Source: Rickettsiales bacterium
GTDB taxonomy: Bacteria; Pseudomonadota; Alphaproteobacteria; Rickettsiales; UBA6187
DNA length: 64,000 bases
Assembly: GCA_040507985.1 (NCBI GenBank)
Contig: JBEVNR010000057.1
Location: 14,128-78,127, forward strand
Direction of reading: 5' to 3'
The notes beneath the pieces were generated by a model, which saw only the letters and a program-made list of their open reading frames with translations, was not told the origin of the DNA and did no database searches. Shown here in pieces: positions 6,999-61,387 of this stretch; position 1 is the first letter of the stretch, and each line of letters begins with the position of its first letter. The position numbers and the translations under genes were made by a program.

Positions 6999-7017
6999 GA
7001 CGGCAACCGATTGCGGC

Positions 7018-7194: not shown

Positions 7195-7423
7195 GACGTA
7201 ATCTCGTGGTGTTGTGTTCGGCCTTTTTCAGCGCGGCCTTTCGCGCAAGAAACCAGCATTACTTATTAAACGACCCGAGGAGTTTGGTCAAGCCAAGTTT
7301 TAGCTTGCTTGCGCACGATCAAAAACTATTTGCCGATACCCGGAACAGTGGCTATAATGACTTTCAACTTCCTTCCTCTATTGATCGCCCGTCGCCGTCA
7401 TCCCACTTAACCACCTTTCTCGC

Positions 7424-8317
7424 TTGCCAAGCGCGTTGCCTTACGTCATGCCGACGTCTATCGCCTCCGTAGAAAAGGAGAAAATATGCCACAGATGCAT
7501 TCACTCTCTTTCCCTCATAATGACTATTGTGGCCACTCTGGTTGCCGCATTTGGAATTGAATCCTACTACGTAATACAACACCAAAACAAAAGCGGAGGG
7601 ATGCCCCTTGACAAGTCTATTCCCTTGTTTTGGCTCATTCTTATTGTTGGCTCCGCTATTTATGATGTAATTTACGCATTCAACTCCTATTATTCTCTTG
7701 TATATCACGCAAAACCATATACAAAAAAATCTACCGACCACCCCGAAAACTCTCGCCTCGAAGAATCCGGTAAACCGGAAGAAAAAAATACCGCACAGAC
7801 GCAAAACAAAGTGACTTACCAAGACCTTGCCGATTTTGCTATGACGCAATATTATTGGAAGAATTTTCCACAGCCTTTCACTTATCGTTTACGCTTTGTT
7901 TTATATGCCGTCCTTTGCCTTTTCGCCATGTGTTGTAATTCGTTCCGTTTTATGGCATGGCGAAACGCAATGATCTTGGACGGAAAAGCAATACCGCTTC
8001 ATCCAGATTGGTTTTTAGGATTCGGATGGACCATGACGTACATAACCATGTGTCGGGTTATTGGCGCTATACGCAGCTTTCCGAAATTTGCAACGGACAT
8101 AAAGAACATTTCTGATGATGTTAGCGTACCGATTGATGAAAAACATCACAAAATGCTTAAGGAATCTTTTAAAAACCTAAGGCTATATGGAATCTTTTTA
8201 TGTTTGGCGTTGCCTGGATTCATTATATCAAGCCTCCCGCTAGCAGCGGAACTTATTGAAGCAATCGTTTGCTGGACCACCATATGCTTCGCTATCGCCG
8301 TCATCAAGATATTCTAA
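7424..8317 (+). CDS. Hypothetical multi-pass membrane protein (AT-rich ORFan)
   Basis: 297-aa ORF with several hydrophobic segments. Hand-counted lines give about 37-45% G+C. The true start may be internal (e.g. MTIVATL at 7519). It converges on the 3' end of the giant gene. Confidence 0.45.
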   Translation: MPSALPYVMPTSIASVEKEKICHRCIHSLSLIMTIVATLVAAFGIESYYVIQHQNKSGGMPLDKSIPLFWLILIVGSAIYDVIYAFNSYYSLVYHAKPYTKKSTDHPENSRLEESGKPEEKNTAQTQNKVTYQDLADFAMTQYYWKNFPQPFTYRLRFVLYAVLCLFAMCCNSFRFMAWRNAMILDGKAIPLHPDWFLGFGWTMTYITMCRVIGAIRSFPKFATDIKNISDDVSVPIDEKHHKMLKESFKNLRLYGIFLCLALPGFIISSLPLAAELIEAIVCWTTICFAIAVIKIF

Positions 8318-8491
8318 CTGTGATTGTATGACGCAATACATCGCTAAGGGTGCGCAAGGTAAGTCTTTTTCGATCATCTCCGCTTTTTTCCTTGCTTTGT
8401 CTTCCCTAGGCGCAGGTCGCCGTTTCCTTGATCTCCCGGATTCCGTCCTTACCTCGGCGTTAGGAGTGCTTTTTTAAAAAAATAAAAATAT

Positions 8492-11400
8492 TTACAACCC
8501 GTATTTTCCTCGTAAATACCCCATAATGGCCGCCTCGCTCTGGCCTTTAACGTGATTCTCGAAAATAATTGCTTCCGCGACGTCGTGGCTTGCCGTCGAG
8601 GCGTTGCCGCCGATATGCATGCCGAACGTCGTGTTCAGCGGCGGGAAAGAGGATAATCCCTTTGTCACCGATTGATTGACCGTCGACGACGCCGAACGTC
8701 GCACGAGCGTCGTCATGCCCATAAAGCGAGACGACGCGCTCACATAGGCATGGGTGACGACGGGCAACCCGACGGAGTCGGAAAGATTCATCCGTACCGC
8801 CGATTCGCCCGTTATGTCAAGCGACGCGTGGCCGTAACGGTAGCCTACGCCTCCCGGAAGCGAAGGATTGGCGTAGCTTTCGGCGTAATTCTGTTCGTCA
8901 AGATAGAGCGACCAATAGCTTCCGCCGTAAGGAAGCGACAGGCCGATATTGCGCGCCGGGTCGCCGAAGGCGATCAGGTTGTTCGGCGCACGCGTATTCT
9001 CCGTCGTCACCACGAACACGCTCAGCTCGCTTGCACTTGCGCCGAAGGGATCGGGAACGTCTAAACTCCGCGCCTTGCCGCTTTCGTAGGCGAAACGCAG
9101 CGCCGGCAACCCGCCGATCCCCGACCCTGCATAGGCGGGCCGCAAGGTCGGATCCGCTTGCGTCGCGTCGTTGCCCTTGCCGGATTTGTCGCGCCATATG
9201 GCGGGGCGAACGGACTGGTCGTAGCGCAGCGAGCCTTGGCAATAGGGATCGGAGGCGTCGAGCCATAATTTTACCTCCGGCAAACCGCTTATGCCGCCGG
9301 GAGACGAGGAGGACAGGCATTCGCTCGTTTCGGGGTTGCGCACGATCGTAATTCCCCATTTCACGCCAAGATAATCCTCCATCGCCGTCATTTGCGCCAG
9401 CGTCACGTTTTGGTCGCCGTAGGCCAATATTTCGCCGACGGCGCCGCTCCAGGTCGCGTACCCTGCAAGCGCTCCGGCGGCGCCCACCGCGTTCGATCCG
9501 TTCGCCTGCCCGCTGCGCGCGGGCGGGGAGTCGGCCATCCGTGTTATGCCGTTGGTGCGTATGCGGCGCATATTCCCGTCGTAATACGCCGAAACGACAA
9601 AGGGTTGGCTCGTCGAAAACCCGAGGGCGCCGGCGGAGTAGGAACCTTTCCAGCTATTTTCGATCAGCGTCGCGCTGCGCATCGCGATGAAATTGCCGGC
9701 CATGTCGACGTCGGTGCGCCCTAAATTGAGCAGCCCCTGCGCCCGCGCCGTCTCCGCCGTCGCCACGGCGAACAAGGCGTAGCGTCCGGCGCCGTTAAAG
9801 GCCGCGACGTTCGGCAATCCCATGTAATCGTTCGCTCCGTCGAACACCATCGCGGACTTGCCGGAGAGATACGACTTGACGTATAGCGGACGGTAATTCG
9901 CCGTCGATTGCACCGCGTCGTTGCCGTTCCGCGACTTATCGCGCCATATGCCGGCCGCTTCGGCGTCGGAATAATTGGCGAGCGTTCCCAAACATAGCGG
10001 GTCGTCTGCGTCCAGCCACACCGCCGGCGTTTGGGTCACGCCCGAAACGGAGGGCGACGCAGCCGACATACATGGCGCCGTCGTCATGTCGTAGGCGGCA
10101 ATCGCGTATTTCGTGCGCAAATAGCTTTCGAGCGACGCAATTTGCGTGCCGGTTAGGCTCGTGCCGGCATAGGCCAGGACTTCGCCGATTTTTCCGTCCC
10201 AATTGGAATATCCGTCCACGCCGCCAACGGAGAAACGTCCGCCCGCCTGGCCGTTGCGCGTTCCGACGCTTTCTTCCGCCAATTTTGCGCCGTTCACCCG
10301 CACCGATCGATTGAATCCGTCATAGGTCGCGCTAATAATAAAGGGAGAGGTGGGCGCAACGCTCACCGGCGCGTTGGTGCCGTCGGACCACCAGCTATTG
10401 CGCCATTCGTAGCCGGACGTTCCGCTCGCCAGCGCCAGCACGTTCGATTTGCCGGATTGCTGCGCGTGGTGGAAGGCGAGCAAGCCTTGCGCCCTCGTCA
10501 CGTCGGCTTGCGCCGCCATGAACACGGCGTACACGTTCGCCCCTTCGAGCGCCGTCATCTCCGGAAGATCGAGCGCGTCGTCCGTGCCGTCGAAATTCAT
10601 CGCGCCCTTACCGTTCGTCCAGCTTGCGACGTAGAGAGGGCGAGGAGAGGCGGAATCCCATTGCGCGGCGTCGTTGCCCTGGCCGGACTTGTCGCGCCAT
10701 ATGGTCACGGCGGCCCCATCGGCGTAGGCGGGAGAGGCCCCGCACAGCGTGTCCGATCCGTCCAGCCATAGTTTAAGCCCGGTCGTCACCCCCGTACCGC
10801 CCGGATTAGAGGAAGACGTGCATGCGCCTTGCGCGGGGGGCACGACGAACGCTCCCCATTTTTGGCCTAAATAATTTTCCACGGACTTAGATTGCGTCGC
10901 GTTCAGCGCCCCTTTATAAAGTAAGACTTCTCCGACGTCGTTTTGCCCCCAGTAATTGTTCCGCACGTGGGAAATATAATACACGTCGGGCGCGATCGTG
11001 GAGTTATTGGCGAACGGATCCTGCGCGATAAGGTTTTTATTGCGATAGACTTGCGCCTTTCCTGCGGCGAGTTGCAGGCGCCACACCGCCATGCCGGCGG
11101 CGAGCGCGCCCGACATGTTCACGTCGCCGTTATCCATGGCGACGGAGAACGTGCCGTCGGTCTGGCCGACAAGGAAGGACAGCCCGGCCGGTTCTTGCGC
11201 GACATAGCTATAGCTCGACGCTTTTTTGTCGAACGCGAATATCGCGTCGCTATCGGAGGCGCTATCGTAATTGCGCGAGGCAAGGAAGATCGTAGCCTCC
11301 CTTCCCGTCAGCGAGAACGCCATGTTGCCGCTCATCGCGTCGTCGACGCCATCGAACCGTATGACGGGCAATCCGTTCTCCATGTTCTTTTTGTAGGTGG

Positions 11401-41400: not shown

Positions 41401-44400
41401 AGGTGGGATCGGTCGCGTCGAGCCACACGGCGAGATTGTCGGTCGGCACGAGGGGAGAGTTGCTTGCGGTGTAACAGGTGTGGCCGCCGCCCGATCCGTC
41501 GCCGTTTAACGCCACGTTCCACTTGCTCGCCAGCTTGTCTTGAATGCCGTTAATGGAGTTAGCGGATAAAAAGGAATTATAGAGAATGATCTCAAAAATG
41601 TTGCCTTCATATTGCTTGGGACCAATCCCGCCGCCTATCCATAGGGGCACGCTTTGGCGGTCCGGCGCGTCGGCGCCCGTGCTGACGGGTGTGCCTCCGT
41701 CTACGGACAAATAGAGTTTTTTCGCGTCGCCCCCGTCGTAATAGAGCGCGGCGACGTGAACCCGATTGTCGGAGACGGCTTTTTTCACGATTTTATCCGA
41801 TCCGCTAGATTCCTCCGTAAAGCCGGCGAACACCTCCGGTCCGGTTTTGATGGTGAGTCCGATATTGCCGGCCTGATCGGCGAAAATGGGAGCGTTGCCG
41901 GAGATATAGGCGGCGCCGGCGTTGGCCTGTGCTATTTTAAAGACGCTGAGCGCGGTAAACCCGGCCGAGCCGAACAGGTTTTGCGACGTGGCCCCCGCCA
42001 CCGTGTAATAGTCGTTTCCGCCGAAATCCGCGCCGATATGACCATAATATTTCACCATTTTGGCCGCGTGCGCGCTTGTCGTCGTCGCGCTCCGCCCGTT
42101 TGCGCTGCGATCCTTCCAGCACAATACCTTATCGCCTTCCGTCGCCGCCGTCGCGCAGTCGGCGGACGAGGAAAGCGAACCGGATTGGCTCGCGTCGAGC
42201 CACAATTGCAATCCCGCGCACTCGCCGTTCGGGCACGGCTCTTCGTCGAGCGGCGTCACGTCCCACCGCTCGGCGAAATATTGTTGCAGCGTGGTTTGCT
42301 CGTTGATCGTGAGCACCCGGTCGTAGACGGCGACTTCCGCGATATCGCCCGCCCAATAGGGGCTTGCGGGATTGCCTTCGGTAAAACCGCCGAGCGCGAA
42401 GGGTTTCGAGCTGGCGTACGGCGCGCTATTGTCGTCGCCCTCCCCGACCGGCATGCCGTTTAAATAGGTTTCAAAGTCGCCGCTGACGCTGCCGCCGAAC
42501 GACGCCTCAAACACGTACATTTGCCCTGCCTTGACGGCGCCGAACCCTTGAACGTTCCAGTTTTGCGCTCCCCCGCGCGCATAGGCCGCCCCCGGAGTGA
42601 ACGCGGCGCCGAGCGTCGAGTTCCAGCTTAGCTGGATGTTTGAGCCTTTGGAAAGCGGGCCGGCGCAACATAGCGCCGCGTTGGGCGAAGCCGTTCCCGC
42701 CGCCACCACGTAATAATGCCAGTCGTCTTGGTTGGGAACAGTCGCGTTTTGCAATATGTTCGCCGTGCCGTTAAATCGCACCACGGCATTGTTGCCGGCT
42801 TTCGCAACGGAAGGCGAGGCGGCGGCGGAAGGCGACGACAAATGCCGCGCGTTCACGCTTTTATCTTTCCACAGATCCGCCCCCTGCCCCAGCTTCATGC
42901 CGGCGGCGAGCGCGGTTTTTCCGTCTCCGGTAATGTCTTTGGCGTCGTACCACACCACCAACCCGTCGGAGATGCCGGCCGGTCCTTGGTCTTTTTCCAC
43001 CGCGACGGAAATGCCCCAGCGGTTACCCATGTCGGCTTCAATTTTTAAGCGTTCGTCGTCGCTGACGAAACGGTTATACAGCGCGATCTCCCCGATATGG
43101 CCGTTATAGTAATCGCTTTTGAGCGTCGAATTTCCCCACGTGCCCACGTAAATCGGCACGTCTTCGTTGACCGCCACGAGCGACACATTATTCACCGCCT
43201 GCCGCTTGCCGCTTAAAAACACGTGCGGCGCGGTGCCGTTCCACGAGACGGAATAAATAAGCGGTTTGCCGTTCGTGTCGGGGTGCGCGTAATTATTGAC
43301 GGTCGTCGTAAAGCGCAAGCCCAGCGGAGAAGCGGCGTTGGCCGTCGAATCCATAAATAAGCGGAACGGCGCGGCGGTCGCGGCTGCGGCGCGTCCTTTA
43401 GCCAGCAGTGTGCCGTTGCTTCCGGCCGCCGGCTTAGCCACGACGAACACGCTGTAACGTCCGCCCTTGGTGGCTTTCAGGCTAAGCCCGTCTATCGTCG
43501 TCGCGTCGGCGTTAAAGCGAAAATAATCGTGAACGCCGTCGAAATACACGGCCTCCCTGCCGTTGATCGCGCCCGTATCAGCTTCCGGCGCGCCGAACCC
43601 GTAAAGCGGATTACCCTTGTTACTCGCGTCGCGCCAATAGCCGACATTGTCGCCGTCGCCGGCTTCGGTGGTGATATTTTCGTCGGTGAATAACGGTTTA
43701 TATTGCGTGTCCACCGCGTTCGACCAGTTGACGATGCCGTCGGTGACGTCGCCGGGGCCGCGCAATCCCGCGCCTTTGCAAAGCGACGCCAGATCCGTCG
43801 CCGCTTCGCTGTCGGCCTTCGTCCAATTGCCGTCGTCGCAACGCAAATGGATTTTACTTTGCGGGTCGCTGCCCGCATATTGGTAGCCGGTTTTGCATTC
43901 GGCCTTCACCTCATAGGCCACGCCGTCGCCGGCCTCGAACGGGCCGCCATAGATAGTCATGTTCCACGGTTTGTTTTCCAATTCGGCGCGGGAGCAGGTT
44001 TTGCGGACGCACGATCCGTTTTCCGGCCACACCCATTCGCCGTCTTTGCCGCATACCGCCGTGGGCGTCGATCCGGCCGGGGTGAAATGTTTCTCGCAGC
44101 CCGACGCTTCGTGAGACGATCCGTCCGCCTCCGCGTTCGGCCATATGATATGGTTGAGCGTGACGGTTTTGCAGATAGATTTCGAACAGTTTTTCTCGCT
44201 TACCTTCCATACGGGTTTGTCTACGTCGTCGAGCGCGCACACTTCATACATGACGCCGTCTTTCGCGCCCGGGCAATTTTCGGTCACGATGGCGCGCATT
44301 TCGCCTAGCGCGTACTCACCGCACGACACGGGCTTGCAGGTGTCGCGCTTCACCGTCCAATAGGGAGAGACGTTTCCGTTATCGACGCAAAGCAGCGTCG

Positions 44401-45814
44401 CCTGCCCCTCTTCGCCGGGAGGACAATCGCGCGTGACGGTTTGGCCGCCGGTGCAAGACGCGCCGCCGTAATCCAACCGGCAACTATTCGCCACCGGCAC
44501 CACCACGTCGTCGCCGCCGCCGGTGCACATATAGGTGACGCGTCCGCTATAGCCGCTCGGGCAATTATTCCTCTCGGTCGTCTCCCATATTTTTAACCCG
44601 CCGTTGCAGGTAACGGGAGAACATTTATTAACGCTCGCGCCCACCCAATACCATTGCGAGGCGGAGACATCCGTGCAGGTTTGCGAGACGTATCCCTCTT
44701 CGCCCCAGCGGCACGCGCGGTAGCGTAGTTTCGGATCGCCCGCCGGATCGGGCACGCAGCGATACACGGCGCCGGCGGCGGAACCGTCGACGATTTTGCA
44801 ATCGGTGTCGAAATCGTCCAATCCGTCCGGATCGGGCTTGTTCGCCCACACGCCGTAGTCGGAACAATATTGCGCGTTATAGGCGCCGACGAAATCGTTT
44901 ATGCATTCTAAACTGCGTTCGTCGCCCGGCGCCTTGCCGCCGTAGCACGTGGCTTGCTCGCAGGCTTTGTGGGTTTCTTGCCACATCAATTCGCCGTTAT
45001 CGTCTTGCTTGCAGGTTTCGTACACGGCGCCGCGATAGCCGGCGGGGCACCCTTTGGTTTCGTCCGACACCTCGCGCACCGCTCCCAGCTCGGAGCAGCG
45101 GCCGGAATATTCCGATCCCTCGCCGCCCATGGCCGACGCGCCTTCCGCGGACAAGAATGCCAGCACGCAATTCGGCTTGTCGTCGGACGCGTTATACGCA
45201 TTGCCCGACGCCAGGCATTTCCCCCCGCCCGACCCGTCGAAGGCCCGCACGCGCCCGGTCTTGGGCAAACCGTCGTCCATGCGTTCGTCCATGAGCTTGG
45301 CGTCTTCCGGGGAAATTATCCCGACGCCGTCGTCATTTGAGGTAAACCCCGCGAAGGCGAAGCCGAACGCCTCCTTCGGCGCGTTCGCTATATTATAAAG
45401 TACGCGGAACCCGCTGCCTGCGATGCTGCCGGCCGGCACGCCCTTGCCGGGAACGTAACGGCTCGTGCCGTCCGCGTCTTCTTCGATGAGTCCGGCGGCG
45501 CGCAAATGCAACCAGAATTGCAGCGCCTCGCCTTCGGTATCGATGGCGCCGTTGCCGTTGCCCGGCGTAAGCGTGGCGCCTTTGGGCGCGGAAAAAGGCG
45601 GAGAGGAGGCGTTGAACGCCATGTCGCCGGGAAGCGCGTTGTAAATGCTGCGGAAATCCTGCGCGGCCTTGGTGTATTTCGCCGCTTGCTTCACGATCGA
45701 GCCGCGGCGCGACTTATCGACGAGCGACATGCCGCCGGCGACCATGACGCTCAGCGCCGCCACCGCCCCCAGCACGGCCGCCATCTCGATTAAGCTAAAG
45801 CCCGTCCGCCGCAT
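8492..45814 (-). CDS. Giant modular pilin-like protein (12,440 aa): prepilin-type signal and pilin domain, 8 four-Cys CCP/Sushi-like modules, about 47 tandem LamG/ConA-like modules
   Basis: A single open frame of 12,440 codons runs from ATG 45814 to TAA 8492-8494. All other frames across the span are fragmented. N-terminus MRRTGFSLIEMAAVLGAVAALSVMVAGG. Periodic conserved motifs recur throughout (see the sub-features). Confidence 0.9.
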   Translation of the reverse strand: MRRTGFSLIEMAAVLGAVAALSVMVAGGMSLVDKSRRGSIVKQAAKYTKAAQDFRSIYNALPGDMAFNASSPPFSAPKGATLTPGNGNGAIDTEGEALQFWLHLRAAGLIEEDADGTSRYVPGKGVPAGSIAGSGFRVLYNIANAPKEAFGFAFAGFTSNDDGVGIISPEDAKLMDERMDDGLPKTGRVRAFDGSGGGKCLASGNAYNASDDKPNCVLAFLSAEGASAMGGEGSEYSGRCSELGAVREVSDETKGCPAGYRGAVYETCKQDDNGELMWQETHKACEQATCYGGKAPGDERSLECINDFVGAYNAQYCSDYGVWANKPDPDGLDDFDTDCKIVDGSAAGAVYRCVPDPAGDPKLRYRACRWGEEGYVSQTCTDVSASQWYWVGASVNKCSPVTCNGGLKIWETTERNNCPSGYSGRVTYMCTGGGDDVVVPVANSCRLDYGGASCTGGQTVTRDCPPGEEGQATLLCVDNGNVSPYWTVKRDTCKPVSCGEYALGEMRAIVTENCPGAKDGVMYEVCALDDVDKPVWKVSEKNCSKSICKTVTLNHIIWPNAEADGSSHEASGCEKHFTPAGSTPTAVCGKDGEWVWPENGSCVRKTCSRAELENKPWNMTIYGGPFEAGDGVAYEVKAECKTGYQYAGSDPQSKIHLRCDDGNWTKADSEAATDLASLCKGAGLRGPGDVTDGIVNWSNAVDTQYKPLFTDENITTEAGDGDNVGYWRDASNKGNPLYGFGAPEADTGAINGREAVYFDGVHDYFRFNADATTIDGLSLKATKGGRYSVFVVAKPAAGSNGTLLAKGRAAAATAAPFRLFMDSTANAASPLGLRFTTTVNNYAHPDTNGKPLIYSVSWNGTAPHVFLSGKRQAVNNVSLVAVNEDVPIYVGTWGNSTLKSDYYNGHIGEIALYNRFVSDDERLKIEADMGNRWGISVAVEKDQGPAGISDGLVVWYDAKDITGDGKTALAAGMKLGQGADLWKDKSVNARHLSSPSAAASPSVAKAGNNAVVRFNGTANILQNATVPNQDDWHYYVVAAGTASPNAALCCAGPLSKGSNIQLSWNSTLGAAFTPGAAYARGGAQNWNVQGFGAVKAGQMYVFEASFGGSVSGDFETYLNGMPVGEGDDNSAPYASSKPFALGGFTEGNPASPYWAGDIAEVAVYDRVLTINEQTTLQQYFAERWDVTPLDEEPCPNGECAGLQLWLDASQSGSLSSSADCATAATEGDKVLCWKDRSANGRSATTTSAHAAKMVKYYGHIGADFGGNDYYTVAGATSQNLFGSAGFTALSVFKIAQANAGAAYISGNAPIFADQAGNIGLTIKTGPEVFAGFTEESSGSDKIVKKAVSDNRVHVAALYYDGGDAKKLYLSVDGGTPVSTGADAPDRQSVPLWIGGGIGPKQYEGNIFEIILYNSFLSANSINGIQDKLASKWNVALNGDGSGGGHTCYTASNSPLVPTDNLAVWLDATDPTCDGKTAYNDGAKLASNLGWKNKGRYAMTLKGTDETAPTYVASAVNTKPAMRFSGQGQYLAGANLSGVPMAAAFVVMTPAATVTPFSAAAQVLDPNYGALGSGLALGNAVSGMSREVASYSDAAGAGYHSAYTGRAAEMAVEPMLLSLKYDAGYKIYRNGVRVDNATDGAAVMGAIGEFYLGGSAQKSNFFSGDIAETLIFSVAPDAAQTAAINTYLATKWGIAVSNDSCVSDGSVPISGLALWLDASDPGCNGQAGYMADGASVTAASPWRDRSGNGRHAGQATASAQPKYDAHAVGGISPAVTFDGNDSLEILAFNALAAKDGYSVVMAAKIASDAADSLISLRDASAPTKIGMLLDTQTGRASFHHHSPLTAGTAGADLAQSQVGGFSYGNFAVYSASRSVASNYQTMRVNGGYVGKKAPIAKPALPAASVATDLLIGRSPAGTASLSGAIAELLVYDRELSSASLASLERQLSGKWGIALDNGCAASGNVDKTGLALWLDAADPACDGVTAWPDGAKVGTGGYLWRDKSGAATVYNGYSYDAGAPSYALASPLNALPAVSFSGNEYIMTDYRPGSPFTAFVVARTPATYANHYGLFGAVDSATDGVSGLFSPSGDLVLQAGDANATGKNLATETNQNGVFRLVMDGSKATASWNGVEGASATYHPAAKTDDYMVIGASSSSGVPVKNYKGMIGEILFYDRALSVTDVAAVERYLSTKWKLVVRSACVEDGAAKPTDMALWLDASDPNCDGATTPANGGAITLWRDKSANVFMATDADAACDPPSYIYGAAGGKAVVRFDGSNDCLTLGKYYPYINTGDGGMTAFVVLRSATTTQKPALDFGARYSGGWGLDFAPSSLRFYAVEASGSGQTASELGLEQNAFAVLSYAVTFGDSQKLSVSGADPIVAKAAPTALDAAKISEAPARATAGAGPFTVGALSGALTAGQYFKGDVAEIRLYKRAFAANERRDVEMDLANKWGAALNRPCAIDKTLNHDKLELWLDALDPACDGATRWPSQSETGVGAYEWRDKSDDRNRLTQSASNRRPTYVTAKINRKPAVYFDGGDGLYGKSNVIPGDATAYSIFTVIAPDASKAQTGQLFGHYAENSGQTAHQFGMNADFTLFYDETTPAGGALVSAGKVRATPDAHIAEFTRNGSARAIYIDGATDRSDNAAEQYAGAKPQRLAIGYDPSNGGFAKGFAGYMAETIVYSRALDDAARRAVETYLADKWGVFVGCADDSAAPSAGLALWLDAADPSCTGKITIANNDKIGIWRDKSGNKNHASATDAAAPVFSYVAGVGLLKFDGVDDRMTTRSAVNVRTAFIVHNTAPGATSVLLDFRAGAANALWGRGGDGTAAVYADNRGAFWVTTPRTDGLDGLPSFRGDALDISTLTAAGAMGTGIANIGAANDGSLPTRSDVAEILVYETALADSAKKSMETYLAKKWKTTLQSACTNKAASVASGLKLWLDAKDAHCDDGKTAPTDGSGLRVWRDKSGSGNVAYQVVASQRPTYKKTATTLGNGSAIGFNNNYLRIKRSGLGISNAFTLMAVISRDNSGSIVGGGDNGFRWHTESNSATCAGASATNNRQWLLVNDGAGTPAFTRHCDTQDVGLQTPSILTTTFDGATRQAIFYVNGKAGATVTGSETSVQSPSDDALIGAGQHNANYYNGAVGEIMAYNRVLTPTELRSVWASAGEKWNVPVACVADVSLTVRPASVKLWLDAKDPACSGAGWTESHPVGMAGYVWRDKSASAFTASALATASMPVYNPKGLNALPSVKFDGTDDRLTLGANYLTSASGGVTLAVALAPSAARQSASNDRLAFAFGYEGAGQVWGLGASGGSGYLLSPTASGGKEDYFPLPASKGEGAFVVARINFGVTQSVHVGGTQMMQDGITLPKLTLAEIAEAAAPGATAGPVAIGGPSSSGGAASRYFAGDVQEIIAYDVALSDAEIAALTAYETAKWNLPTYGACRSDASAPQNGLALWLDASDVDCQGGALSGGANIGSAKNMWRDKSGHTPGAVNGDGARPTLSSTVTQNNKKLVTLDGTDDFLEFTDLYDLTDKTLLMAAKFTVGGNKQGLFARRSSASSGNETILLPGAPASLFLFTAAGGSDTTLDIAAPAADMGFFGVYAVTVTADRAVSVYRNGGAHASGALAGPLRVERFGIGYDPGPYYLNAALGEMLIYDHALDSTERGAAETYLSLKWKVALSCVSDQTLTYKNGISLWLDAADPLCDGATRYKNGDVVPAWMDKSGNNRHAYAVTAPKYATGVANNMPAVTFSSASLQSLEIATAFAPRDIFLVGSQNARDSAGAFMGGRTDANFRLWERTKTERLQLLATASVAAPADGMHIYRVSQAAGGALSAYADGESFGVQTPSQALLNDSFYIGQRKGAGADAYLDGYIAEIIAYAAPAVDADAANVGAYLSKKWGASYQPAPTCKPDAALAYQTGLNLWLDGADPDCDGTAGLSSASSVKSWIWRDKSAAKSFAVQYRRPAYKADARNGKGAFVFSASGSHFAAPSLPVTGGDMFVVASFANSGESGTLLSTGDEYFFYKQSDARLYGKANGSTAYVAPPSDVDYHVYRLKTGTPSKIFVDGAQQAQTGAGFNAQSGNLWRIGAQKDAYYADAAIAEILSYGAPLADVDAATVQTYLSGKWFTGGACASDSSLAPAGLVLWLDANDPLCSGNAKAYPNNASVPLWKDKSGQAHDAAPQFGKGKPTLAWNAGYNGRSMMYFDAANNSALQTANILRNDFTAFIAFKPLAASASGVYPNQNGGLLSADAASGLRFNVSYGGQKLYFGVNDVFISSVFGVETTRMATLRRQGAILQLFAEGLQKQWVGNAASGALNAADGMSIGSVRTANASYQGHIGEIVAYDSALANDKRNAVESYLAKKWNVDAPDFGACTSDSNPGGITGMSGLQLWLDAADPQCKGATKKYADNEKTWFWYDKSGAARHMGAVAENTRPVYKKSGINGREAFYFDHSHMTAPKGLDADFTLFAIIYPDAGSASGGPASTDNGGLISMDIASGRDFTFAFGGGALRFGIYNAPAAVELSAATPAGAPYLVAAKRSGATVSLYNSGNLTATNAAAPTGWMESNQFSVGAVPTNGNAYKGYIGEILAYNVPLSDTDRGRIESYLGKKWGISGFCADNVGIPSAKMELWLDATDPTSACAESSSPTAPLAQWNDKSGKGRAATAPLPANAPTRTLNTLNGKAALVFDGVDDYLSGTYNVTLTGGKATIFVVADLLDLTKDGAGVFILTKAAPATGLWGGYAETTGINVAIDPAANKNFSFLAKNRVNSLDAPDRVAAYALRLKATEAELFVDGTKKLGDVGYVGATVTPGAYFLGRYDNAYNTIQLGEAILYSDALSDTDLTTVSTYLANKWHIKKTATTCAGNIPFPYPAGLKLWLDAKDPYCTGEAAVNGASVSVWNDKSGSGASLPVRGGAKMATSGALGAISFDGVDDVAGHRAGAVGSVDLKVADSSLLTLFVTAKTAEETATPGTMLRLYGQGAQAPNPLPVQSLEFGVATSHLLRYDVSGSARTLGAYTTDAMRIYNLTAKNSEIKLYVDGNQRVYGDQSPANIASVRRIMIGASPDSANGLSNERYFKGNIGDVIVYSAVIAENERQFVEDYLATKWGIPIDRTCSYNDMSLPTVNRILWLDAADADCKGTLTTASSVGTWKDKTTNMIHAGANNAIRWQSKAQNGLPMAELQAGDFFDVGADKFLNVSNLTGFIVAAPSVGESAQTMLSASFAEGEGALGLSLFKQNVAFGVTTGAASKEDTAGKTALYSFVWNNTADTLQLGINASGDMATTPYNLSAVTLNKGLRIGAKSDGSAPFSGRIGEIVLYGRTMSADERRGAERALSAKWGLAAAVCVSEDDALPYKAGLQLWLDAGDPMCGDASAYANGESATLWLDKSGYDRYASSPLTATAPLFTANAQNALPVMRFDGNKRMQGKGAFGFASRDMTLMVATAVVDRAKDNAYVFSLDKQGGASVSSEPNFLGLGNAVADNTLRLHGAGYGLDATAATPTDFTIWTARLASNMATLYKNGAQITQDAYAGTAFAPDTYSIAAARDNDWGRVDVGEIVLFDHAVTATERAVNEAYLGHKWGVGVACGPITQPLPYQTGNILWLDAEDPLCIGKENQYGGDTTVAIWRDKSGKGNDAAISASGYRPIYRLNRQNEKPAVDFDGTDDRLRMPDMPELLGNANYYIFAVANADTIRSQSLLNLTSTTNLYGSNVHFMSSATNWRHNWYGNDQNTPVVFTAGETFLYAATWNGTTRTTRFNGVATGSGTPSVAHNGLQNGLNAIGETFSGSGYWDGAVEEVSVYAGTTLTAANVKSVESYLATKWGIAKALRVFNACASSFSSGPGGVSGGLALWLDAADPFCQGTGAQYASGEAVRLWRDKSSKGYDATQPLNGSWPVYAPTPGIHALPVLDFDGTNGYLSLPDMPELLGNNSYAIFAVAQPDALRRQALLSIGTPSINNVFIENTLNDAAGAWRHGWGGTGAYIDVATQENTIATTAPFLYGAVWNNASGKLSVRFEGKKITEIAPSPHNGQQSGINSVGRALHTTGERWDGKIGEIVVYGNTNLSDVNIATVENYLAVKWGISAQSVCTSSADPGNTGKTAGLRLWLDANDPYCLGEATRYADGGAVSLWRDKSRSSHHAYQSTALLMPVYRQSGMNALPAVEFDGADDYVNLPVISALNGNNAYNIFLVVKTDVVATKNFIALGEPSNRSYLSLEFSNANLRQAWWGADLDVSAAAAGVSAGVPFLATLTWDGAIRTTRINGAVKAQDAPGARNMSNTNVDAIGRMLHTSGYTFDGMMAEMLVYADTSMDAATVPAIEAYLAQKWGIATAAACVPSSGSGVTGGLQLWLDATDPTCYGGKLSDGVELASWKDKSGNNNHAGQTVAAAKPVYKTTSGFGASLPSVVFAGGDYMAAADSVGLSLSQDMTGFIVLSVSNLDRPAYLLSKGADNAYNWRINSLLGTGATGGSGVQRLFFKDAGAASYSYVSPKPNVDKPVMLSVALDMGNAGTGNTASFYENGKLTKTHNFVSTAIKDTNDALWVGAGNPAAGDPNYLKAEVGEILLYNTALTGTQIATVHDYLSKKWKISSDATSACASSSDPGATGVTDGLQLWLDAEDPYCQGKAAQYANGAAVYLWRDRSGKGNNAGQSTAALQPTYATNWRFGKPAMNFDGTDDNLALPDIAALAGNAKYYVFGIGYARAPAAKNGFAMLGASGQANKGNGHWYNGTNQLWNHDWQGTALSPNAASYMGVGAFMFAGAWDGAARTVRMNGRQVASDAPPAHNTLQNGNNRIGVYNDGANRYWNGMIAEVLVYAGSTLTAKNVSAIESYLAGKWDLGGYLCPEIPTNYAPSNDLALWLDAGDMDANCKTDAALYAETDVSAWKDKSGSGYNAVADGTVWAINASAPTPGAKSPPSVGRKVIAGKNVVTFDRANNENLSLLNPVAPANHPLMPNGNNSYTMLAVMQTERYAEQYLLASSEYGVAGATAPNVFSLYRSLTGAVENLWETSVDGAINAYPLMKPYKVARSIPYALSFRYDKNADGRMVRVNGEEIGSAFDTTSRNGNASQYIWIGAGVHRNENGDLLETFNFDGHIAEMLYYRSALSTVDLKEVENYLISKWALLSSCDASTNPPVKIAGANLKMWLDADDVNGDCTPDGNIPNQDVVVWVDKSGKGNHASWGVAPSIDGVKVNNRNAVTFNAASGEYFRMQDKTIPLGNDPYTVAAILTYKALPGTGDRFLMSGGTGGGRFGVGLGDDFTAKIGVGATFTSTDWGSVMPDMAQMLVARYDSGARTIRINRKQEIGASTSTSATGGNNQIGRDGAAASAYFNGSIAEMLVYNAALSSAQYGQIYDLEEYLNKKWNIVSVCSEKSLANVSGLTLWLDADDIDADCVPDDATPAGAADAWQDKSGNNADAWGAAKPNVVKNTVQGNDGSMRNIVSFDGINDYLGIRKSVFPKYNDNYTLFAAFSTNLQDGATQQFIYGQEKGGLNTHGYLLSGVDASLMRHYNTNGTEQRLKTGANLFPQTMRVLTVRGSAATTNMYVDGEERTLVSSSAARAQDAASRMDSIGAARLVSTATACSGECYKGDVAEIILFNRRLGAGVGSDTASIQRYLQEKWGIYRDCALNSIPATKGTGLALWLDGDDLDGDCKSDSVAANGQKLSVWRDKSGHYRHAYHLTDARRPYVEATDVGRETRNGHNAVKFVASEQNWLHIPDETVPVGNSPFTIFAVFREATNTSAQTLVSGGNAASLGSYTALELAHAGVRGDLTLYGFSGGPISMGTDSVSPFMLYAASVVYDPALGRAILFNADAAMLAPDGVKNHAATGIDNRIGAKGGNSSWMDGEAGEVIIYGSPLSQGDVIVVQRYLLEKWGIDQKQNDASPKEGDATGDSDGNDCLADDSIPQTHLTFRISANDLACQGVRHPLADGAAVALWKDRSGWARDVYASDSSRRPTFKRNILNGRPIVRFNGTSNKLGVNVEGRKIFGANGDMTFFALANYASPAHEGKIFTWGDEEGEPAYMGITALSGGGSLFFDVGNATSGNGRLAFVPAGGFADNWHFYTAQRDGANMRLRIDGADVASGGATSVPSFNYYERDLAIGSDGPHYYKGDVAEIILYDAALSDEGIQAVEGQISGNWGVGMSCAHDAALDGLTTPPDMWMDADDPFCAGRTSQYTQGQTAQYWYDKSSARRKLTASGAPAYDKRDHGVRSVIKMAANDFYDGPTLVSDLGGTDSGAAFVVFRKPDATARYISGALNGNGSFYMLGAANGATDMGALNVAAGALPLSVSVAKTTAGTNAGYHIATAFLHAPNNRAGLRVDGVTERLGAANFSSYDFANAAFRIGGASGATNGAGSVLYVGEAILTAKPVSADDIETVESYLATKWGIARPQDVACSPGAGPAASVTGANAPALWLDANDVYCNGASSYGDGQRVSLWRDKSGKNYHARQKTDGFAPIYAVSDGFNRRGVVFDGTDDRLSVPAVTELAGNAPYSIFAVARLDDVSAARGMLALPDSSTNNHANAHLFDGATHNWANSWKGNDLLVPQQTFMVHAFPMALQQETFLYEASWDGTTRKIYKNGLWRAADAPAQSRASSASDAFMLGSAGGVYWRGAVHEVIAYNRAYNDADARALNLALAKKWNIVEAIKILADCVPDSIPGMESRAADMALWLDGKDVYCTGDKFALPGGGAGTIINPFLIWRDKSGKGYDVYPQPGSIKNNVFSSNKIPYVSNVEPGATFEQAALWHHGGAFGAGGELSFYMAIAPIAYDGAVAAEKKGFATFLSADNASIFSLTAKTANAGAWTLAHTGDTSLQSSAALETLGALGVYGGYISSSKHEMGFASYQEGAIKAGGDRGGRMKWTGAGAGVSNLSNVMLGYGGGTWNVKEFVAYNAATTAEEEATVVTYLRDKYDIPGPARTCASSSNPMIVGVDATPALWLDAADPLCQNNALYEDGAVPYRWADKSKNNYHADIVYGAPIFKKNIQNALPVMRFDGVDDGLTGYASWRFPDKKMTIVVALAAGDAAGHSDAVFTLDDRASTASPFSDPSLIYFGRGGTSDQNVGLLSNNQDINVSSAADVSFGVWRAEIDGAQAFVAKNGVVTSRDASYLADLISPNAYYVGHVRGGQNFGRADVGEILLYDSALSPTQAWAAEKYLAQKWGVASPINAACSSSTLPGGATLSRAPALWYDAEDPLCQGTGTKYTDGEKIFLWRDKSGHNAALSQTDVAVMPEYRTNYMNALPAIRFTSDAMKRADTFGGGLADMYIFAALRENVAADNKFISFDGAPSAAEAGLYLQAAGSTNPMWKWVTSGAPTLSMPAGTTSVGGISIVRAYYSSSNLKAKIVVNGTKAAETTKTSGNLSTKGGAYVGYGSSDQDIGELIVYDGAITSSDAQTLETYLATKWGTSSSLGACAPYVAPAGVASVPTFWLDASDPLCSGVAAQYSESAAVGLWRDKSGKANDAAQSQASKKPVYAGQGLATGKPAMRFDGTDDYLTLPDMAAFTGNSSYAFFVVAQPEVIAQQTLLGVGKSAVGVNSFTSHEMSPANNAWKYNWGAGGATIDISKFSVSTPFIYAARWDAARTLQTLRLNGATEYEATAPAFAGEQNGGNQIGHFTPSPGSYWNGKIAEIIAYGNATLSDANMTSVENYLAAKWGLGAYGACSGAGNPGGTNVTSGLTFWLDAADPLCTGTGQPYADGAAVALWKDKSGKANNATQTTAAYKPAYRKTAVNSLSAIDFDGTDDVLAMADMSEFSGNNAYALFFVAQPDVLKQQMLFVIGKSGTNDAYEGTAMVDSSGTWIDAWWGSNDRSVTQSVSKIAANAPFIYSAVWNPLTSVRKFRFNGMLAMETNSGTHALQYGEANGFGKVRSNYGGWDGKIAEAIGYGNATLGDADVIKVERYLAAKWGISVPLACTSGSNPGNTGVTAGLALWLDAADSYCMGSGTQYANNASVGLWRDKSGKESNGVQFVDAYKPKYIQTGLNGLPTMDFDGTDDYIGFPNLPELLGNNSYAIFMVAQTDALRRQSIISIGTPNITNAYIENTISSASGDWRNSWWGGDLDVSQADSALAANKAFIYGALWDNVNALRVLRFDGVTRAEASFSAHAGQQSGINSIGRALQTSGEKWDGKISEAIVYGNVVLSDPDVVKIGRYLADKWAISAFPAVCTSSADPKITGATNLLSLWLDASDPLCRGSASQYANGAAISLWRDKSGNGRDARQSTASYKPTNVSGWRNGLSSVYFTTNANRMNVPAVKSLGGNANYYVFALTEVNAIAGYQQKLLDFGKWTNRSSNSHFLNSSNQWAHDWFGTTQNTSTASIAANQPFIYLATWNGTTRDTRFNGVVRNQDTPGARNQYFDGFGYIGQRAGADQSWIGHIGEIMVYGGTTLTEANINAVTAYLANKWGISIDASAYPCTSSPNPGATGVTTGLKLWYDAADVYCQGGYTPYANAGAVNLWRDKSGNASNATQNTAANKPTYDTSDASLPALIKFDGTDDYLSVPSMPSMTGNAPYAAFMVMSASSLGAASGTVVSLSDTTSAQYMSQSLTPINSWNQSWGGGQQLTRVTPSVNQLFLVSSVWNGSELLVKKNGETKKWLSPSAPNFSPGTRNMIGAMPDPGNASAILYPWKGAIAEALAYVGTTQTHAERIALEKYLMNKWKITIPKEGAACASSSDPGGAGATAGLKLWLDAEDPYCQKAASRYASGASVALWRDKSGNGNDAVQDNPAAWPTYDVTNLPGARAGMNFDGSSDDVILRNFSSLVGNAPYAVFGVAATDDVSKASQHLISIMQNNAQLLTSGNIWKQDWSGAPSNQTVAAGVTQGQLFLVSALWDGSARKLKINGALKGQDAPGAPSFTQNGSNRIGGNAAGSNYWDGIEAELLVYGGSVPNDTQITALENYLMTKWGITSGGGAGGGNPGNLGVTSGLQLWLDANDPKAQGAANQYADAERVSVWRDKSGYVRDAVTTYDAPVYKKNTQNGLPVMYFNGADAGSAMAVQAPISLPQREMTLFFAMAPKDLQSDWRALFTLDNTNSAYSNVYQDPNAFVFGVSDVDGQLFTERDNYDMVGLVAADVNFSVWSMRAQAGALKMFRSGVKVAEDAYVNASAVTSNVVTIGYERDGSMAKADFGEIILYNRALSDGEMRSVEQYLGNKWGTAAYVACASNAGPGGSGVTSGLKLWLDANDPYCQGSSAQYANGSTVNTWRDKSGRGYDAVLDGGTPSYVTNAQNGLPVVRFDGVDDAMSGFGALTFTNREATIFIAADNKDSVTDWDGIFATDRSAPSTATLALQPAGLNFAVYSTDGKAQLLMDQGDINALADIPTGLAVWRLALKSGVASLYRNGALAGQDNFANTSTVTPDKYYVSHVRGANFGRNDFAEILLYEGALSAANVNVLESYLQAKWFAKDNRTAACASTADPGATGVVAGLTVWLDANDPYCQGASVQYADGAAVDLWRDKSGNVYNATLKNGSPTYKKNMENGLPVIRFDGVDDAMSGNMAFSLTGREATIFLASRNYDSASDSDAIFAFDKKASSYSYVAQEPAGLSFLVGQTDGTFSVAMDNGDVNMSGALAAGMAVWRLQLAAGKAQVYRNKNLIAQDPFANNSTIAPDVYYISHVRNNYWGQNDVGEVLLYKGALNATQSKSVENYLGQKWGAFVVPPAQGACTSSSNPGGTGVTTGLKLWLDGSDTLCGASPAYADGAAVTIWRDKSGQGNDAAQWDSASPRPLYVASWTNGKGAMNFDGTDDALDLPEMTALEGANVYAVFMAAQADVTRAQGLLAFHHAQQSGKSNVLALASGTSGYEWRNSWWSDGTNAPVSVAPTSPFIISATYDGFNRSVRVNGAKLAEESVGTRNGQAGGRFSVGGVDGYSNWDGKIGEVLAYAGTSLTGTQIASLESYLRTKYAIAAYDMTTAPCMSAASPSVSGVTQTPAVWLDADDPLCLGTLANYSDAEAAGIWRDKSRNGNDAVQSTANYRPLYVKSYLSGKSAMVFDGANDYMGLPNVAAFNGAGRYALFAVATAETARAQGLLNLGRTDVDMAGNFIAMRSATLIENSWKGSYSAGALGFSTSQPFVVSAYYDGNMRRIRTNGITRMADSPPARSGQANGSNAVGAAGALAGYATWSGAVGEILAYGDQNVTLAQMTAMEDYLGVKWGITIVRNPETSECLSSSSPGGISGLPEVKLWLDASDPYCQGSLRYDQSVRPAIWRDKSGKGNDATQADPTLRPAYAGSGIGGLPALRFAYESGKARSLDVPDPFGASASELSVFVVTTENTRAPNNLIAFGDPARNIGLSLPYGGSYWSLYLDEQNYAESYANPSLPGGVGYRYGHASLDITGESAVRMNLSDSVGLPVVTHAYVSASSRFMGMTTLVRRSASSTVNQSVTKGLSSFPPLNTTFGMHIGGNASTASHDVAEAIIFENHVKGQSEAAIMGYLRGKYGL
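8495..43790 (-). repeat. Array of about 47 diverged tandem LamG/ConA-like (Laminin_G_3-type) modules, period 651-858 nt (mean about 750)
   Basis: The Trp codon of the module-initial LW(L/Y/M)DA motif lies, all in frame, at 43724, 42950, 42200, 41423, 40673, 39899, 39173, 38396, 37649, 36998, 36242, 35447, 34724, 34040, 33374, 32633, 31916, 31175, 30419, 29723, 29000, 28253, 27491, 26762, 25970, 25235, 24377, 23663, 22886, 22073 (degenerate, Arg), 21326, 20564, 19796, 18992, 18242, 17519, 16766, 16013, 15257, 14510, 13748, 13022, 12272, 11522, 10766, 10016 and 9263. Each module also has W.DKSG.., ..FDG.. and a terminal ..E..(V/L)Y...L....E.YL..KWG. Confidence 0.85.
43778..45097 (-). repeat. 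Eight tandem four-cysteine modules (CCP/Sushi/SCR-like spacing)
   Basis: Residues 240-679 contain 32 Cys in eight C..C..C..W..C units of about 45-75 aa. Several have GY after Cys2 and Trp before Cys4, e.g. CSRAEL..AECKTGYQYAGS..LRCDDGNWTKA..SLC. Confidence 0.6.
45155..45724 (-). other. Pilin-like globular region ending in a Cys200-X15-Cys216 loop (D-region-like)
   Basis: Residues about 31-220. ..GGGKCLASGNAYNASDDKPNCVLAF.. sits at the C-terminal end of a pilin-sized domain. The Cys200 codon was verified at 45215-45217. Confidence 0.6.
45725..45814 (-). other. Class III (prepilin-type) signal: leader MRRTG, predicted cleavage G|F, Glu+5, hydrophobic alpha1-N helix
   Basis: Residues 1-30 are MRRTG/FSLIEMAAVLGAVAALSVMVAGGMS. 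This matches the G/F(T/S)LIE consensus of type IV pilins and T2SS pseudopilins. Confidence 0.8.
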
Positions 45815-45947
45815 ATATATAACAAGTATGTTTCAACTTTTCTAACGTCAGCGCCCGCGTTTTTTCGCCTTTTAAAGACGCGCGACTCCCCAACCTAAAA
45901 AACAGGGCACCTTCACGTCAGCATAAAGAGGAAAAGATAAGGAAGGG

Positions 45948-46334
45948 TTAACCGAGTAAAGGAGGGAGGCGAATAAAAAAGCGTCGGATTGACCCGTTTA
46001 GGCGCCTATGGTAAATACGCCTTACGCGTTTTCGCAGCAGATAGTCTTCCTTCGCTATGGCGTCGCGGCTTTTAGGTTTCTTGGCGATTCGCTTGGGATA
46101 CACTTTTTCGAGAGCAAAAACGTGCAGACCTCGCGTCGCCGCCGTCTTGGCGCAGAATTTCCCGACGGCAGGAGACAGACGATCCCATCCGTCTTCGCCT
46201 TCCATGTGATTGAACTCGGAAAAATGTTTAATCGTCGCCGCAATGCGGCTTGCTTCAAAAAAATTATCGGTCACGAATGTAGCGCTCTCTCCAAGAAGTC
46301 TGCTTCCTCCTGCAACGACGGCGCCTATAGACAA
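45948..46334 (-). CDS. Hypothetical protein directly upstream of, and co-oriented with, the giant gene
   Basis: 128-aa ORF in the AT-rich spacer with no recognisable motif and a basic C-terminal tail. It competes with an overlapping plus-strand ORF (46008..46397) that looks less protein-like. Confidence 0.3.
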   Translation of the reverse strand: MSIGAVVAGGSRLLGESATFVTDNFFEASRIAATIKHFSEFNHMEGEDGWDRLSPAVGKFCAKTAATRGLHVFALEKVYPKRIAKKPKSRDAIAKEDYLLRKRVRRIYHRRLNGSIRRFFIRLPPLLG

Positions 46335-46532
46335 GTTGACGGCGTCGACATAAAGTTTCTCAATATTGCTCGAGCGTATGCCGGAATTGCTAATTAACGA
46401 TTGACTATCTGCTTATAATAAATTATTATTAATAATAATCCATTCATCCGCTTACAGCCTGCCATATTCGCCGCTCTTCCTCGCTTACGCTCCGAACGTC
46501 TTTCCATTATATCGTCGCGCCGGTTCGCTACG

Positions 46533-47147
46533 ATGTTCTCTCCATACGGATTGTTCACGATGGACAGATTCCTAAATGCGGTTCGCCATATCCCGACAAT
46601 GCTTGCCGCCATAGCGAAGTTTTGTCTTCGGTGGTTAGCTTTCCCGGTTTTCGACCTCAGGCCATCCCGCATTCTTCTTCCCACGCATTCTCGAATAGGA
46701 TATGGGATCGTTGGTATGCTGACATGGATTGTTTATCTTTTGCGAGCAATCGCAAAAACGTTTGTAGATAAATATGTGCTCCTCATATGTATTTTGGTTT
46801 CCTTGGGCGTCGTCTGTGGTTTATTGCTATGGACCGAGATTTACCATCTTAGATGGAAAAGACCGTTCAGAGAAGCGATCAAAGTGCAATATATCTTTCG
46901 TACCGCATGGTTAATCAGTCTGGGCGTCGTATATATATTGTATGCATTAAGCGATCTCCGCAATGCTCCGCCTATCGCCGTTCCGATTGTCACAATCGTC
47001 CTGATAGTCTTATCTTTTGCATGTTACGTCGTTATAGCGCGGTCTTTATTGCCAAAATATTTCTGGAACAAACAAGAAAGAATTCGAGCTTATGCAATAC
47101 AGAATCAATCGGAAGCAGAACGTCAATGGCCTACAAATCGCAATTGA
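46533..47147 (+). CDS. Hypothetical multi-pass membrane protein (AT-rich ORFan)
   Basis: 204-aa ORF with about 4 hydrophobic helices. No family recognised. Confidence 0.45.
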   Translation: MFSPYGLFTMDRFLNAVRHIPTMLAAIAKFCLRWLAFPVFDLRPSRILLPTHSRIGYGIVGMLTWIVYLLRAIAKTFVDKYVLLICILVSLGVVCGLLLWTEIYHLRWKRPFREAIKVQYIFRTAWLISLGVVYILYALSDLRNAPPIAVPIVTIVLIVLSFACYVVIARSLLPKYFWNKQERIRAYAIQNQSEAERQWPTNRN

Positions 47148-47292
47148 AAGATTTATGAAAAAAGGAACGTTGCCAAACGTTCGCAAGAGGAGGAGAAGGG
47201 GAAAAATGGCGCGCGGCGCCGTTTTTTCCCTTCTCCTTTTTTATTCCGCGCATTTTACCTTCGCCGCGCGATCAAATCTTTATTGAAAACGG

Positions 47293-61275: not shown

Positions 61276-61387
61276 TCAAACGCACGTCGAAATTTTTGTC
61301 GGATTCAGCGCCGAAAAAATAATCCGTATTTCTTTTTTTGTTACGAATAAGGAAACGCAAGCGAAACCGACGACGTCAAGGAAGAAG

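Follow-up and report, generated by a model that had tools for sequence, protein, structure and literature searches.

A compositionally native 37-kb giant gene near dnaA, bordered by AT-rich orphan genes, in an alphaproteobacterial metagenome-assembled genome

A stretch of 64,000 nucleotides (hereafter, the window) from contig JBEVNR010000057.1 of a metagenome-assembled genome (MAG) labelled "Rickettsiales bacterium" at NCBI (locus-tag prefix ABW189) contains a single giant gene, which encodes a protein of 12,440 amino acids (aa) and is placed with rpmG on one side and an mscS-fghA-dnaA block on the other. The giant gene is a native, long-resident chromosomal gene, and this status is, together with the absence of linked pilus or secretion machinery, a solid result. 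We consider it rather probable that, in addition, this native gene is served by type-IV-filament machinery encoded at an unlinked locus, that the AT-rich segments at its two ends are generic orphan islets, and that it probably lies on the leading strand. The context of the locus is largely ordinary; the unusual object is the giant gene itself.

The same DNA was independently assembled by Logan (run SRR28982155), and the NCBI and Logan assemblies agree on the 12,440-aa product. No literature record turned up under the run, locus-tag or protein accessions. Gene identities were assigned with Pfam and NCBIfam profiles, whose scores were compared with the curated cut-offs. A preliminary description, made from the letters of the window and a list of its open reading frames (ORFs), had placed the giant gene among housekeeping genes, and galU, rpmG, an mscS-like gene, fghA and dnaA were indeed identified by profiles (Table 1). 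It had also put dnaA about 4 kb away in the same orientation; the measured distance from the dnaA stop to the giant gene start codon is 3,920 bp, with both genes on the minus strand.

Composition and architecture of the giant gene

The G+C content of the giant gene is 0.596, the window mean being 0.578. Its G+C at third codon positions (GC3) is 0.711 and its codon adaptation index (CAI), calculated with the recognisable genes of the window as the reference set, is 0.72, the housekeeping genes spanning 0.67–0.79 and 0.66–0.81, respectively. The relative synonymous codon usage (RSCU) of the giant gene correlates with that of the pooled housekeeping genes at r = 0.969, and each housekeeping gene correlates with the remainder at r = 0.75–0.93. 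Because G+C, GC3 and CAI fall within the housekeeping range and the RSCU correlation is this high, the giant gene is native. The preliminary description had called the gene compositionally native and had contrasted it with its flanks; the G+C and codon profiles reproduce this contrast, with atypical flanks on either side of a native gene. Individual 60-nt lines within the gene have a G+C of 0.32–0.83 (median 0.60). A gradient runs along the gene, from about 0.62 in the 5' 12 kb through 0.58–0.59 in the middle and back to 0.62 at the 3' end, and G+C dips to 0.555 at gene positions 30–33 kb.

The giant protein begins with a class-III-signal-like N-terminus, continues with a cysteine-rich Sushi-like region and then consists of about 45–46 laminin-G (LamG)/concanavalin-A-like repeats of about 250 aa. 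In the leader, MRRTG followed by FSLIEMAAVLGAVAALSVMVA, a short basic segment ending in Gly, a Phe at +1, a Glu at +5 and a hydrophobic stretch (aa 8–26) are all present, and a six-frame regular-expression scan found it to be the sole class-III-signal-like motif in the window. No pilin globular module was recognised in the giant protein, and its residues 1–250 gave no match to PDB sequences. Judged from its sequence, the giant protein is probably a member of the pilin family. The cysteine-rich region (aa ~200–680, window positions 43775–45214) lies between the leader and the lectin repeats; about 34 of its roughly 480 residues are cysteines, and it shows a borderline match to Pfam Sushi/CCP (20.6 bits, cut-off 20.7) and a weak match to Ephrin_CRD.

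The repeats match Pfam Laminin_G_3 with 72.6 bits (cut-off 27.6). A repeat profile compared with PDB matched lectin modules, among them the PilC minor pilin 7oa7 (E = 0.003), and the placement of concanavalin-A-like/LamG modules C-terminal to a pilin-like leader is a feature of modular pilins that is present in the giant protein. At the protein level the repeats are mutually 19–47% identical, and the repeat DNA contains short motif stretches of 60–80% identity and no long near-identical copies. This divergence indicates that the array is old and makes an assembly artefact unlikely.

No machinery that could assemble or export such a protein was recognised at the locus. Among the window ORFs there was no Pfam or NCBIfam match to a pilus, type II secretion system (T2SS), Tad or type I secretion system component, nor to an integrase or transposase; the only ABC protein in the window is of the soluble ABC-F/Uup type. 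Scans of the window and of about 5 kb past each end revealed no prepilin peptidase, assembly ATPase or platform protein; in window coordinates, the span without a pilus or secretion gene reaches from about -5.5 kb to about +67.5 kb. The preliminary description had seen no secretion, pilus, integrase or transposase genes nearby and had concluded that the assembly machinery is encoded elsewhere. The profile scans of the window and about 5 kb on each side agree with the former observation, and they show that the machinery is not local. Pilin genes are commonly encoded away from assembly genes, and in bacterial genomes there is nothing unusual about an unlinked arrangement or about AT-rich orphan neighbours.

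AT-rich flanks and orphan islets

The two borders of the giant gene are AT-rich, with a G+C of 0.434 at 7270–8491 and 0.458 at 45815–47292. Windows of 300 nt at 7.5–7.9 kb have a G+C of 0.40–0.41, in agreement with the hand counts of the preliminary description at 7.5–7.7 kb. The left AT-rich stretch starts at about 7000, so that rpmG falls inside it, and part of the right flank (45900–46400) is merely mildly AT-rich (0.50–0.52). Each flank carries an orphan ORF (ORFan): ORFan297, of 297 codons, on the left and ORFan204, of 204 codons, on the right. Both have a G+C of 0.42–0.44 (window, 0.58), and their codon usage is foreign to the housekeeping genes (GC3 0.45 and RSCU r 0.22 for ORFan297; GC3 0.44, CAI 0.46 and RSCU r 0.04 for ORFan204). 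ORFan297 (MET0156291.1, ABW189_09360) starts at ATG 7448 in the NCBI annotation, which gives 289 aa. Its sequence contains five hydrophobic segments, each about 19 residues long, and that of ORFan204 contains four. In a set of 5.8 billion clustered proteins, each of the two matched itself alone. ORFan297 was also compared by HMMER with all of 1.84 billion representatives, again with a self-match as the only result, and neither protein matched Pfam, NCBIfam, PHROGs or PDB sequences. AlphaFold single-sequence models of the two are all-helical and of low confidence, with predicted local distance difference test (pLDDT) scores of 48 and 62. Their earlier characterisation as unrecognisable multi-pass membrane proteins is thereby confirmed.

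Both flanking ORFans lie on the plus strand, where ORFan297 converges with the giant gene and ORFan204 diverges from it; therefore, neither can be co-transcribed with it. A promoter-like site lies upstream of each. The one before ORFan204 is a consensus match only, such sites being no more numerous than in shuffled sequence. An intrinsic-terminator-like hairpin lies 44 nt past the ORFan204 stop, and ORFan204 looks like a self-contained transcription unit. The hairpin, between ORFan204 and mscS, is a 22-nt inverted repeat with 91% complementarity and a 3-nt loop. The region past the stop of the giant gene yielded no intrinsic terminator-like site. The right flank also contains a 128-aa minus-strand ORF (45948–46334) that overlaps a 129-aa plus-strand ORF (46008–46397) with codons in register, an arrangement that typically yields shadow ORFs. 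Neither has a family match in Pfam, NCBIfam or PHROGs. The preliminary description had listed the former as an ORF co-oriented with the giant gene; the reading frame exists, but both NCBI (ABW189_09370) and Logan annotate the plus-strand ORF instead, and the 128-aa ORF is probably a shadow of, or shadowed by, that ORF.

Comparable islets occur elsewhere in the genome. By simple segmentation the window has seven low-GC segments, five of which carry orphan ORFs longer than expected by chance (RSCU r 0.04–0.64). Apart from the two flanks, these are segments 701–1700, 57401–59250 and 61101–62450, which hold orphans of 130, 357 and 190 aa with a G+C of 0.43–0.47 and an RSCU r of 0.24–0.64. Immediately to the left of the window there is a sixth AT-rich orphan gene for a membrane protein (L043:276–1076); its product has a signal peptide, a single transmembrane segment and an acidic low-complexity tail. 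The four orphans outside the flanks of the giant gene (G+C 0.43–0.48) are situated between housekeeping genes. No protein or DNA similarity is shared among the islets. The density of orphan islets is about one per 10–13 kb, and four of the five window orphans (955–1347, 7424–8317, 57712–58785 and 61388–61960) are antisense to both native neighbours. The two flanking AT-rich segments are best read as belonging to a population of small AT-rich orphan islets that is spread across the genome and numbers at least six.

AT-rich ORFans and recently acquired genes in bacterial genomes were reportedly treated by Daubin and Ochman in 2004. The islet orphans resemble known AT-rich bacterial ORFans in being short, AT-richer than the host, atypical in codon usage, devoid of homologues and scattered among native genes. 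They differ from these in lacking mobile-element hallmarks and phage-family matches, in including several membrane proteins, and in the antisense placement of four of the five. Recently acquired genes are AT-richer than their host genomes (PMC4462595), and the islet orphans are best read as genes that are either recently acquired or young and lineage-specific, and that have yet to drift toward the host composition.

The preliminary description had offered the possibility that the flanking ORFans are dedicated accessory factors, as well as that of unrelated lineage-specific genes. In the former case the two membrane proteins would be lineage-specific partners of the giant protein, for anchoring, export, quality control or immunity, and would replace the secretion loci found beside giant genes of other phyla. 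The location of islets at both giant gene junctions (chance ~0.05), the multi-pass membrane nature of both ORFans and the lack of other machinery nearby are consistent with such a role, and Omnitrophota giant genes have conserved secretion neighbours (10.1101/2023.11.21.568195). However, both ORFans lie on the strand opposite the giant gene, ORFan204 with its own terminator, and neither resembles any pilus or secretion family. Moreover, long-standing partners would be expected to converge on the host composition, whereas the RSCU correlations are 0.04 and 0.22, against 0.97 for the giant gene. Since matching islets are found at junctions unrelated to the giant gene, the flanking ORFans are not to be taken as accessory factors; adjacency is what speaks for such a role, which we regard as decidedly unlikely. 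Very unlikely, in turn, is the combined case in which the ORFans are dedicated partners and the giant gene occupies an origin-proximal leading-strand site selected for transcribing a 37-kb gene. If true, this would make the region a self-contained locus for a giant adhesin, able to function with no secretion cluster linked to it, and the ORFans would be engaged in membrane handling, anchoring or release.

It is also unlikely, if somewhat less so, that the AT-rich flanks are decaying or non-coding spacer in which the ORFs are remnants or chance frames. The complete lack of homologues for both ORFans, a GC3 that does not exceed G+C at the first or second codon position, low CAI values, the low pLDDT scores and the antisense shadow pair of the right flank would all fit spacer DNA, as would the fact that the exact ORFan204 protein is recorded from Logan gene calls only and not from NCBI. 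Against this, the two ORFs exceed the longest stop-free stretch of 1000 segment shuffles, their hydrophobic helices of about 19 residues are regularly spaced, a strong terminator hairpin stands 3' of ORFan204, and ORFan297 was called by NCBI and Logan alike. Lastly, the giant gene and its AT-rich edges could form one horizontally acquired island between rpmG and mscS, a proposal that we find highly improbable. AT-rich DNA does lie at both borders, the N-terminal 700 aa of the giant protein are unmatched at E <= 0.001 in a word-seeded protein search, and a repeat-signature scan of JGI metagenome contigs gave no relative. Nevertheless, the giant gene is indistinguishable from the housekeeping genes in codon usage and G+C, only the short flanks being atypical; no integrase, transposase or tRNA was found, the window also lacking Rfam families; no direct repeats are common to the two borders, and the two flanks share no sequence.

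Coding strand and the replication origin

The preliminary description had reasoned that, with an origin near dnaA, transcription of the giant gene would be co-directional with the leftward fork, and had named GC skew as the check. The cumulative G-C minimum is located at 51,300, within the 633-bp dnaA-uup intergenic region. However, the coding strands of the window have a G-rich first codon position, and the bulk skew consequently follows the coding strand; left of 51,300 as many as 43 of about 50 coding kb lie on the minus strand, a single gene accounting for 37 kb of these. In numbers of genes, minus and plus stand at 8 and 9 to the left of this point and at 2 and 8 to the right. Where one huge gene dominates a short window, a minimum of cumulative GC skew is no evidence for a replication origin, and the window does not locate oriC.

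For strand, we relied on a leading-versus-lagging comparison of pooled G/C counts at four-fold sites, scanned across the window. With the origin set at 51.5 kb, the skew is -0.037 in leading-strand genes and -0.083 in lagging-strand genes (z = 1.36). For any origin at 45.9–64 kb, and equally if the window holds no origin, z is 1.2–2.7, and it becomes about -1.9 when the giant gene is set on the lagging strand. Co-directionality of the giant gene with replication is thus weakly favoured wherever the origin lies. The four-fold-site skew fails to localise an origin. A plain plus-strand four-fold skew about 51.5 kb (+0.017 to the left, -0.053 to the right) was rejected, as it ignores the coding-strand baseline of C3 over G3.

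An origin within 51184–51816, which would make the giant gene origin-proximal (~5.5 kb), give it a high dosage and orient it with the leftward fork, is a possibility that we hold tentatively and rate as somewhat doubtful. The region adjoins dnaA, contains the bulk skew minimum and is followed by genes that run 8:2 on the plus strand. It is relatively AT-rich (G+C 0.48) with A/T tracts, it has no GATC site where 4.3 are expected, and it contains six copies of CCGTWAA against 0.41 expected (a 15-fold enrichment) and eight of CGTAAA against 0.54; these copies may be sites for a lineage-specific regulator or initiator. Other AT-rich intergenic stretches have at most a single copy of either motif. 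Against an origin here, the region shows no DnaA-box cluster, TTATCCACA-like boxes being at chance level (none at one or fewer mismatches and one at two mismatches, 1.05 expected), and no CtrA-type TTAA-N7-TTAA sites; its single GANTC site represents no enrichment. Furthermore, the four-fold-site skew gives 51184–51816 no special standing, and the near-equal gene counts to the left mean that the bulk skew is mostly one 37-kb coding strand. In Caulobacter, the origin (Cori) lies at hemE/duf299 rather than beside dnaA (PMC6393856), and no hemE is present in the window. The dnaA-uup region resembles Cori in being an intergenic, AT-rich stretch near dnaA in which short motifs recur and the bulk skew reaches its minimum; it differs in lacking G-box/W-box-like DnaA boxes, CtrA sites, hemE and duf299, and in having just one GANTC site.

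Gene order, relatives and known systems

The features of the window are collected in Table 1. Beyond it, Logan contigs extend to the left with the 266-aa orphan and TamB, and to the right with MurJ, a PAP2 protein and a sensor kinase/response regulator. The gene for TamB (translocation and assembly module; 1,346 aa, L043:1425–5465), some 100 bp upstream of the first gene of the window, points to a diderm envelope equipped for the assembly of outer-membrane proteins.

Table 1. Positions of genes and sequence features in the 64-kb window
Feature	Position	Strand	Remarks
Acyltransferase	98–796	+	Pfam/NCBIfam
AT-rich 130-aa ORFan	955–1347	-	Control islet, unrelated to the flanks of the giant gene
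pyrH, frr, inositol monophosphatase, DUF2238, NifS/IscS-like cysteine desulfurase	Between 1347 and galU		Pfam/NCBIfam
galU	5395–6291	-	TIGR01099, 323 bits, just under cut-off 326.8
PCMT-family methyltransferase	Between galU and rpmG		Pfam/NCBIfam
Left AT-rich islet	7000–8491		Includes rpmG and ORFan297; G+C 0.40–0.49 in 300-nt windows
rpmG	7018–7194	-	TIGR01023, 45.9 bits, cut-off 23.95
Promoter-like site upstream of ORFan297	7330–7358		
ORFan297	7424–8317	+	Five-transmembrane orphan membrane protein
Giant gene, 12,440 aa	8492–45814	-	ORF; same product in Logan assembly
Prepilin-type leader-like motif (MRRTG/FSLIE) and hydrophobic helix	45737–45814	-	N-terminus of the giant protein
128/129-aa overlapping ORF pair	45948–46397	Both	
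Promoter-like site TTGACT-17-TATTAT upstream of ORFan204	46401–46429	+	Consensus match
ORFan204	46533–47147	+	Four-transmembrane orphan membrane protein
Hairpin, 20–22 bp, G+C-rich, then T-run	47191–47237	+	Intrinsic-terminator-like
MscS-family mechanosensitive channel	47293–48672	+	Pfam MS_channel domains above cut-off
fghA (S-formylglutathione hydrolase)	48766–49626	-	TIGR02821, 376.8 bits, cut-off 281.7
dnaA	49735–51183	-	TIGR00362, 446.9 bits, cut-off 343.9
dnaA-uup intergenic region, 633 bp	51184–51816		
ABC-F/Uup ATPase, soluble	51817–53652	+	
rpmF, plsX, fabH, then 398-aa unknown ORF	Right of uup		
AT-rich 357-aa ORFan	57712–58785	-	NCBI ABW189_09415; control islet
miaB, murB	Between 357-aa and 190-aa ORFans		
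AT-rich 190-aa ORFan	61388–61960	-	Control islet
Sel1-repeat protein	Right of 190-aa ORFan		

DnaA-anchored scans of 185,579 GTDB species-representative genomes and of Joint Genome Institute (JGI) metagenome contigs were used to look for relatives of the locus. In none of 40 DnaA loci were mscS, fghA, the ORFans or a giant gene found beside dnaA. In the window, dnaN does not come next after dnaA. The alignment of 45 repeats was too diverged to serve as a search query, and a metagenome contig scan with the repeat signature WLDAxD[PS][YLF]C and nine closer repeats yielded no relative. The lineage appears to be deep-branching and unsampled.

The closest functional analogues of the giant protein may be modular pilins such as PilC of Streptococcus sanguinis, which combines a pilin module with a concanavalin-A-like lectin module; PilB of the same species is likewise a modular type IV pilin (PMC8179133; PMC9934059). 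These pilins share with the giant protein a class-III-signal-like N-terminal leader followed by grafted adhesive or lectin modules. They differ from it in size, the giant protein, with its ~46 lectin-like modules, being more than 14 times longer than the most extreme multi-domain case in a survey of modular pilins (860 aa with 12 motif copies; PMC8179133). They also differ in that the giant protein has a leader just under the curated cut-offs, no recognised pilin globular module and no machinery at its locus.

A second comparison is offered by the giant genes of Omnitrophota, which lie about 100 kb from the origin and have a conserved T2SS-like locus of more than 10 genes directly upstream, with small class-III-signal genes nearby (10.1101/2023.11.21.568195). 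Like the present gene, they are very long single genes with a predicted role in attachment, and they are co-oriented with the replichore in genomes whose origin is marked by dnaA. In contrast, orphan ORFs, mscS, fghA and dnaA, rather than a T2SS-like cluster, are situated upstream of the giant gene of the window, no secretion genes or small class-III-signal genes occur within about 14 kb on one side and about 22 kb on the other, the class-III-like signal is carried by the giant protein itself, and dnaA is 3.9 kb away.

Several observations weigh against the reading of a native pilin-like giant gene with unlinked machinery and generic islet neighbours. The leader scores below cut-off with both TIGR02532 (15.2 bits against 16.3) and Pfam N_methyl (12.8 against 21.2), and a word-seeded protein search with the first 700 aa of the giant protein gave no match at E <= 0.001. 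The nearest DnaA relatives, from Micavibrio-like, Rickettsiales and Geminicoccaceae MAGs (loci L002–L042), are 40–48% identical. The search for machinery extended over the window plus about 5 kb on each side. The membrane nature of the two flanking ORFans is what might be expected of partners for a pilin-like precursor anchored in the membrane. Moreover, with five islets among 20 native-gene junctions, an islet on both sides of the giant gene has a chance of C(18,3)/C(20,5) = 0.053, a post hoc figure, and this two-sided placement is suggestive at most.

On the reading that we prefer, the giant gene would be a native, long-resident gene of a deep-branching alphaproteobacterial MAG. The class-III-like signal would insert its precursor in the inner membrane. 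A prepilin peptidase would cleave the precursor, and a machine of the type-IV-filament class, encoded at an unlinked locus, would present or release it. The product may act as a very long multivalent glycan-binding adhesin. The flanking ORFans, on the opposite strand and apparently in units of their own, would adjoin the giant gene without being demonstrable partners of it. The alignment of the giant gene with dnaA, probably on the leading strand, would be as expected for a 37-kb transcription unit. In contrast to the giant genes of Omnitrophota, this one is encoded apart from any assembly system. It is an ancient resident and not a recent import, which implies that its function is part of the core biology of the organism.

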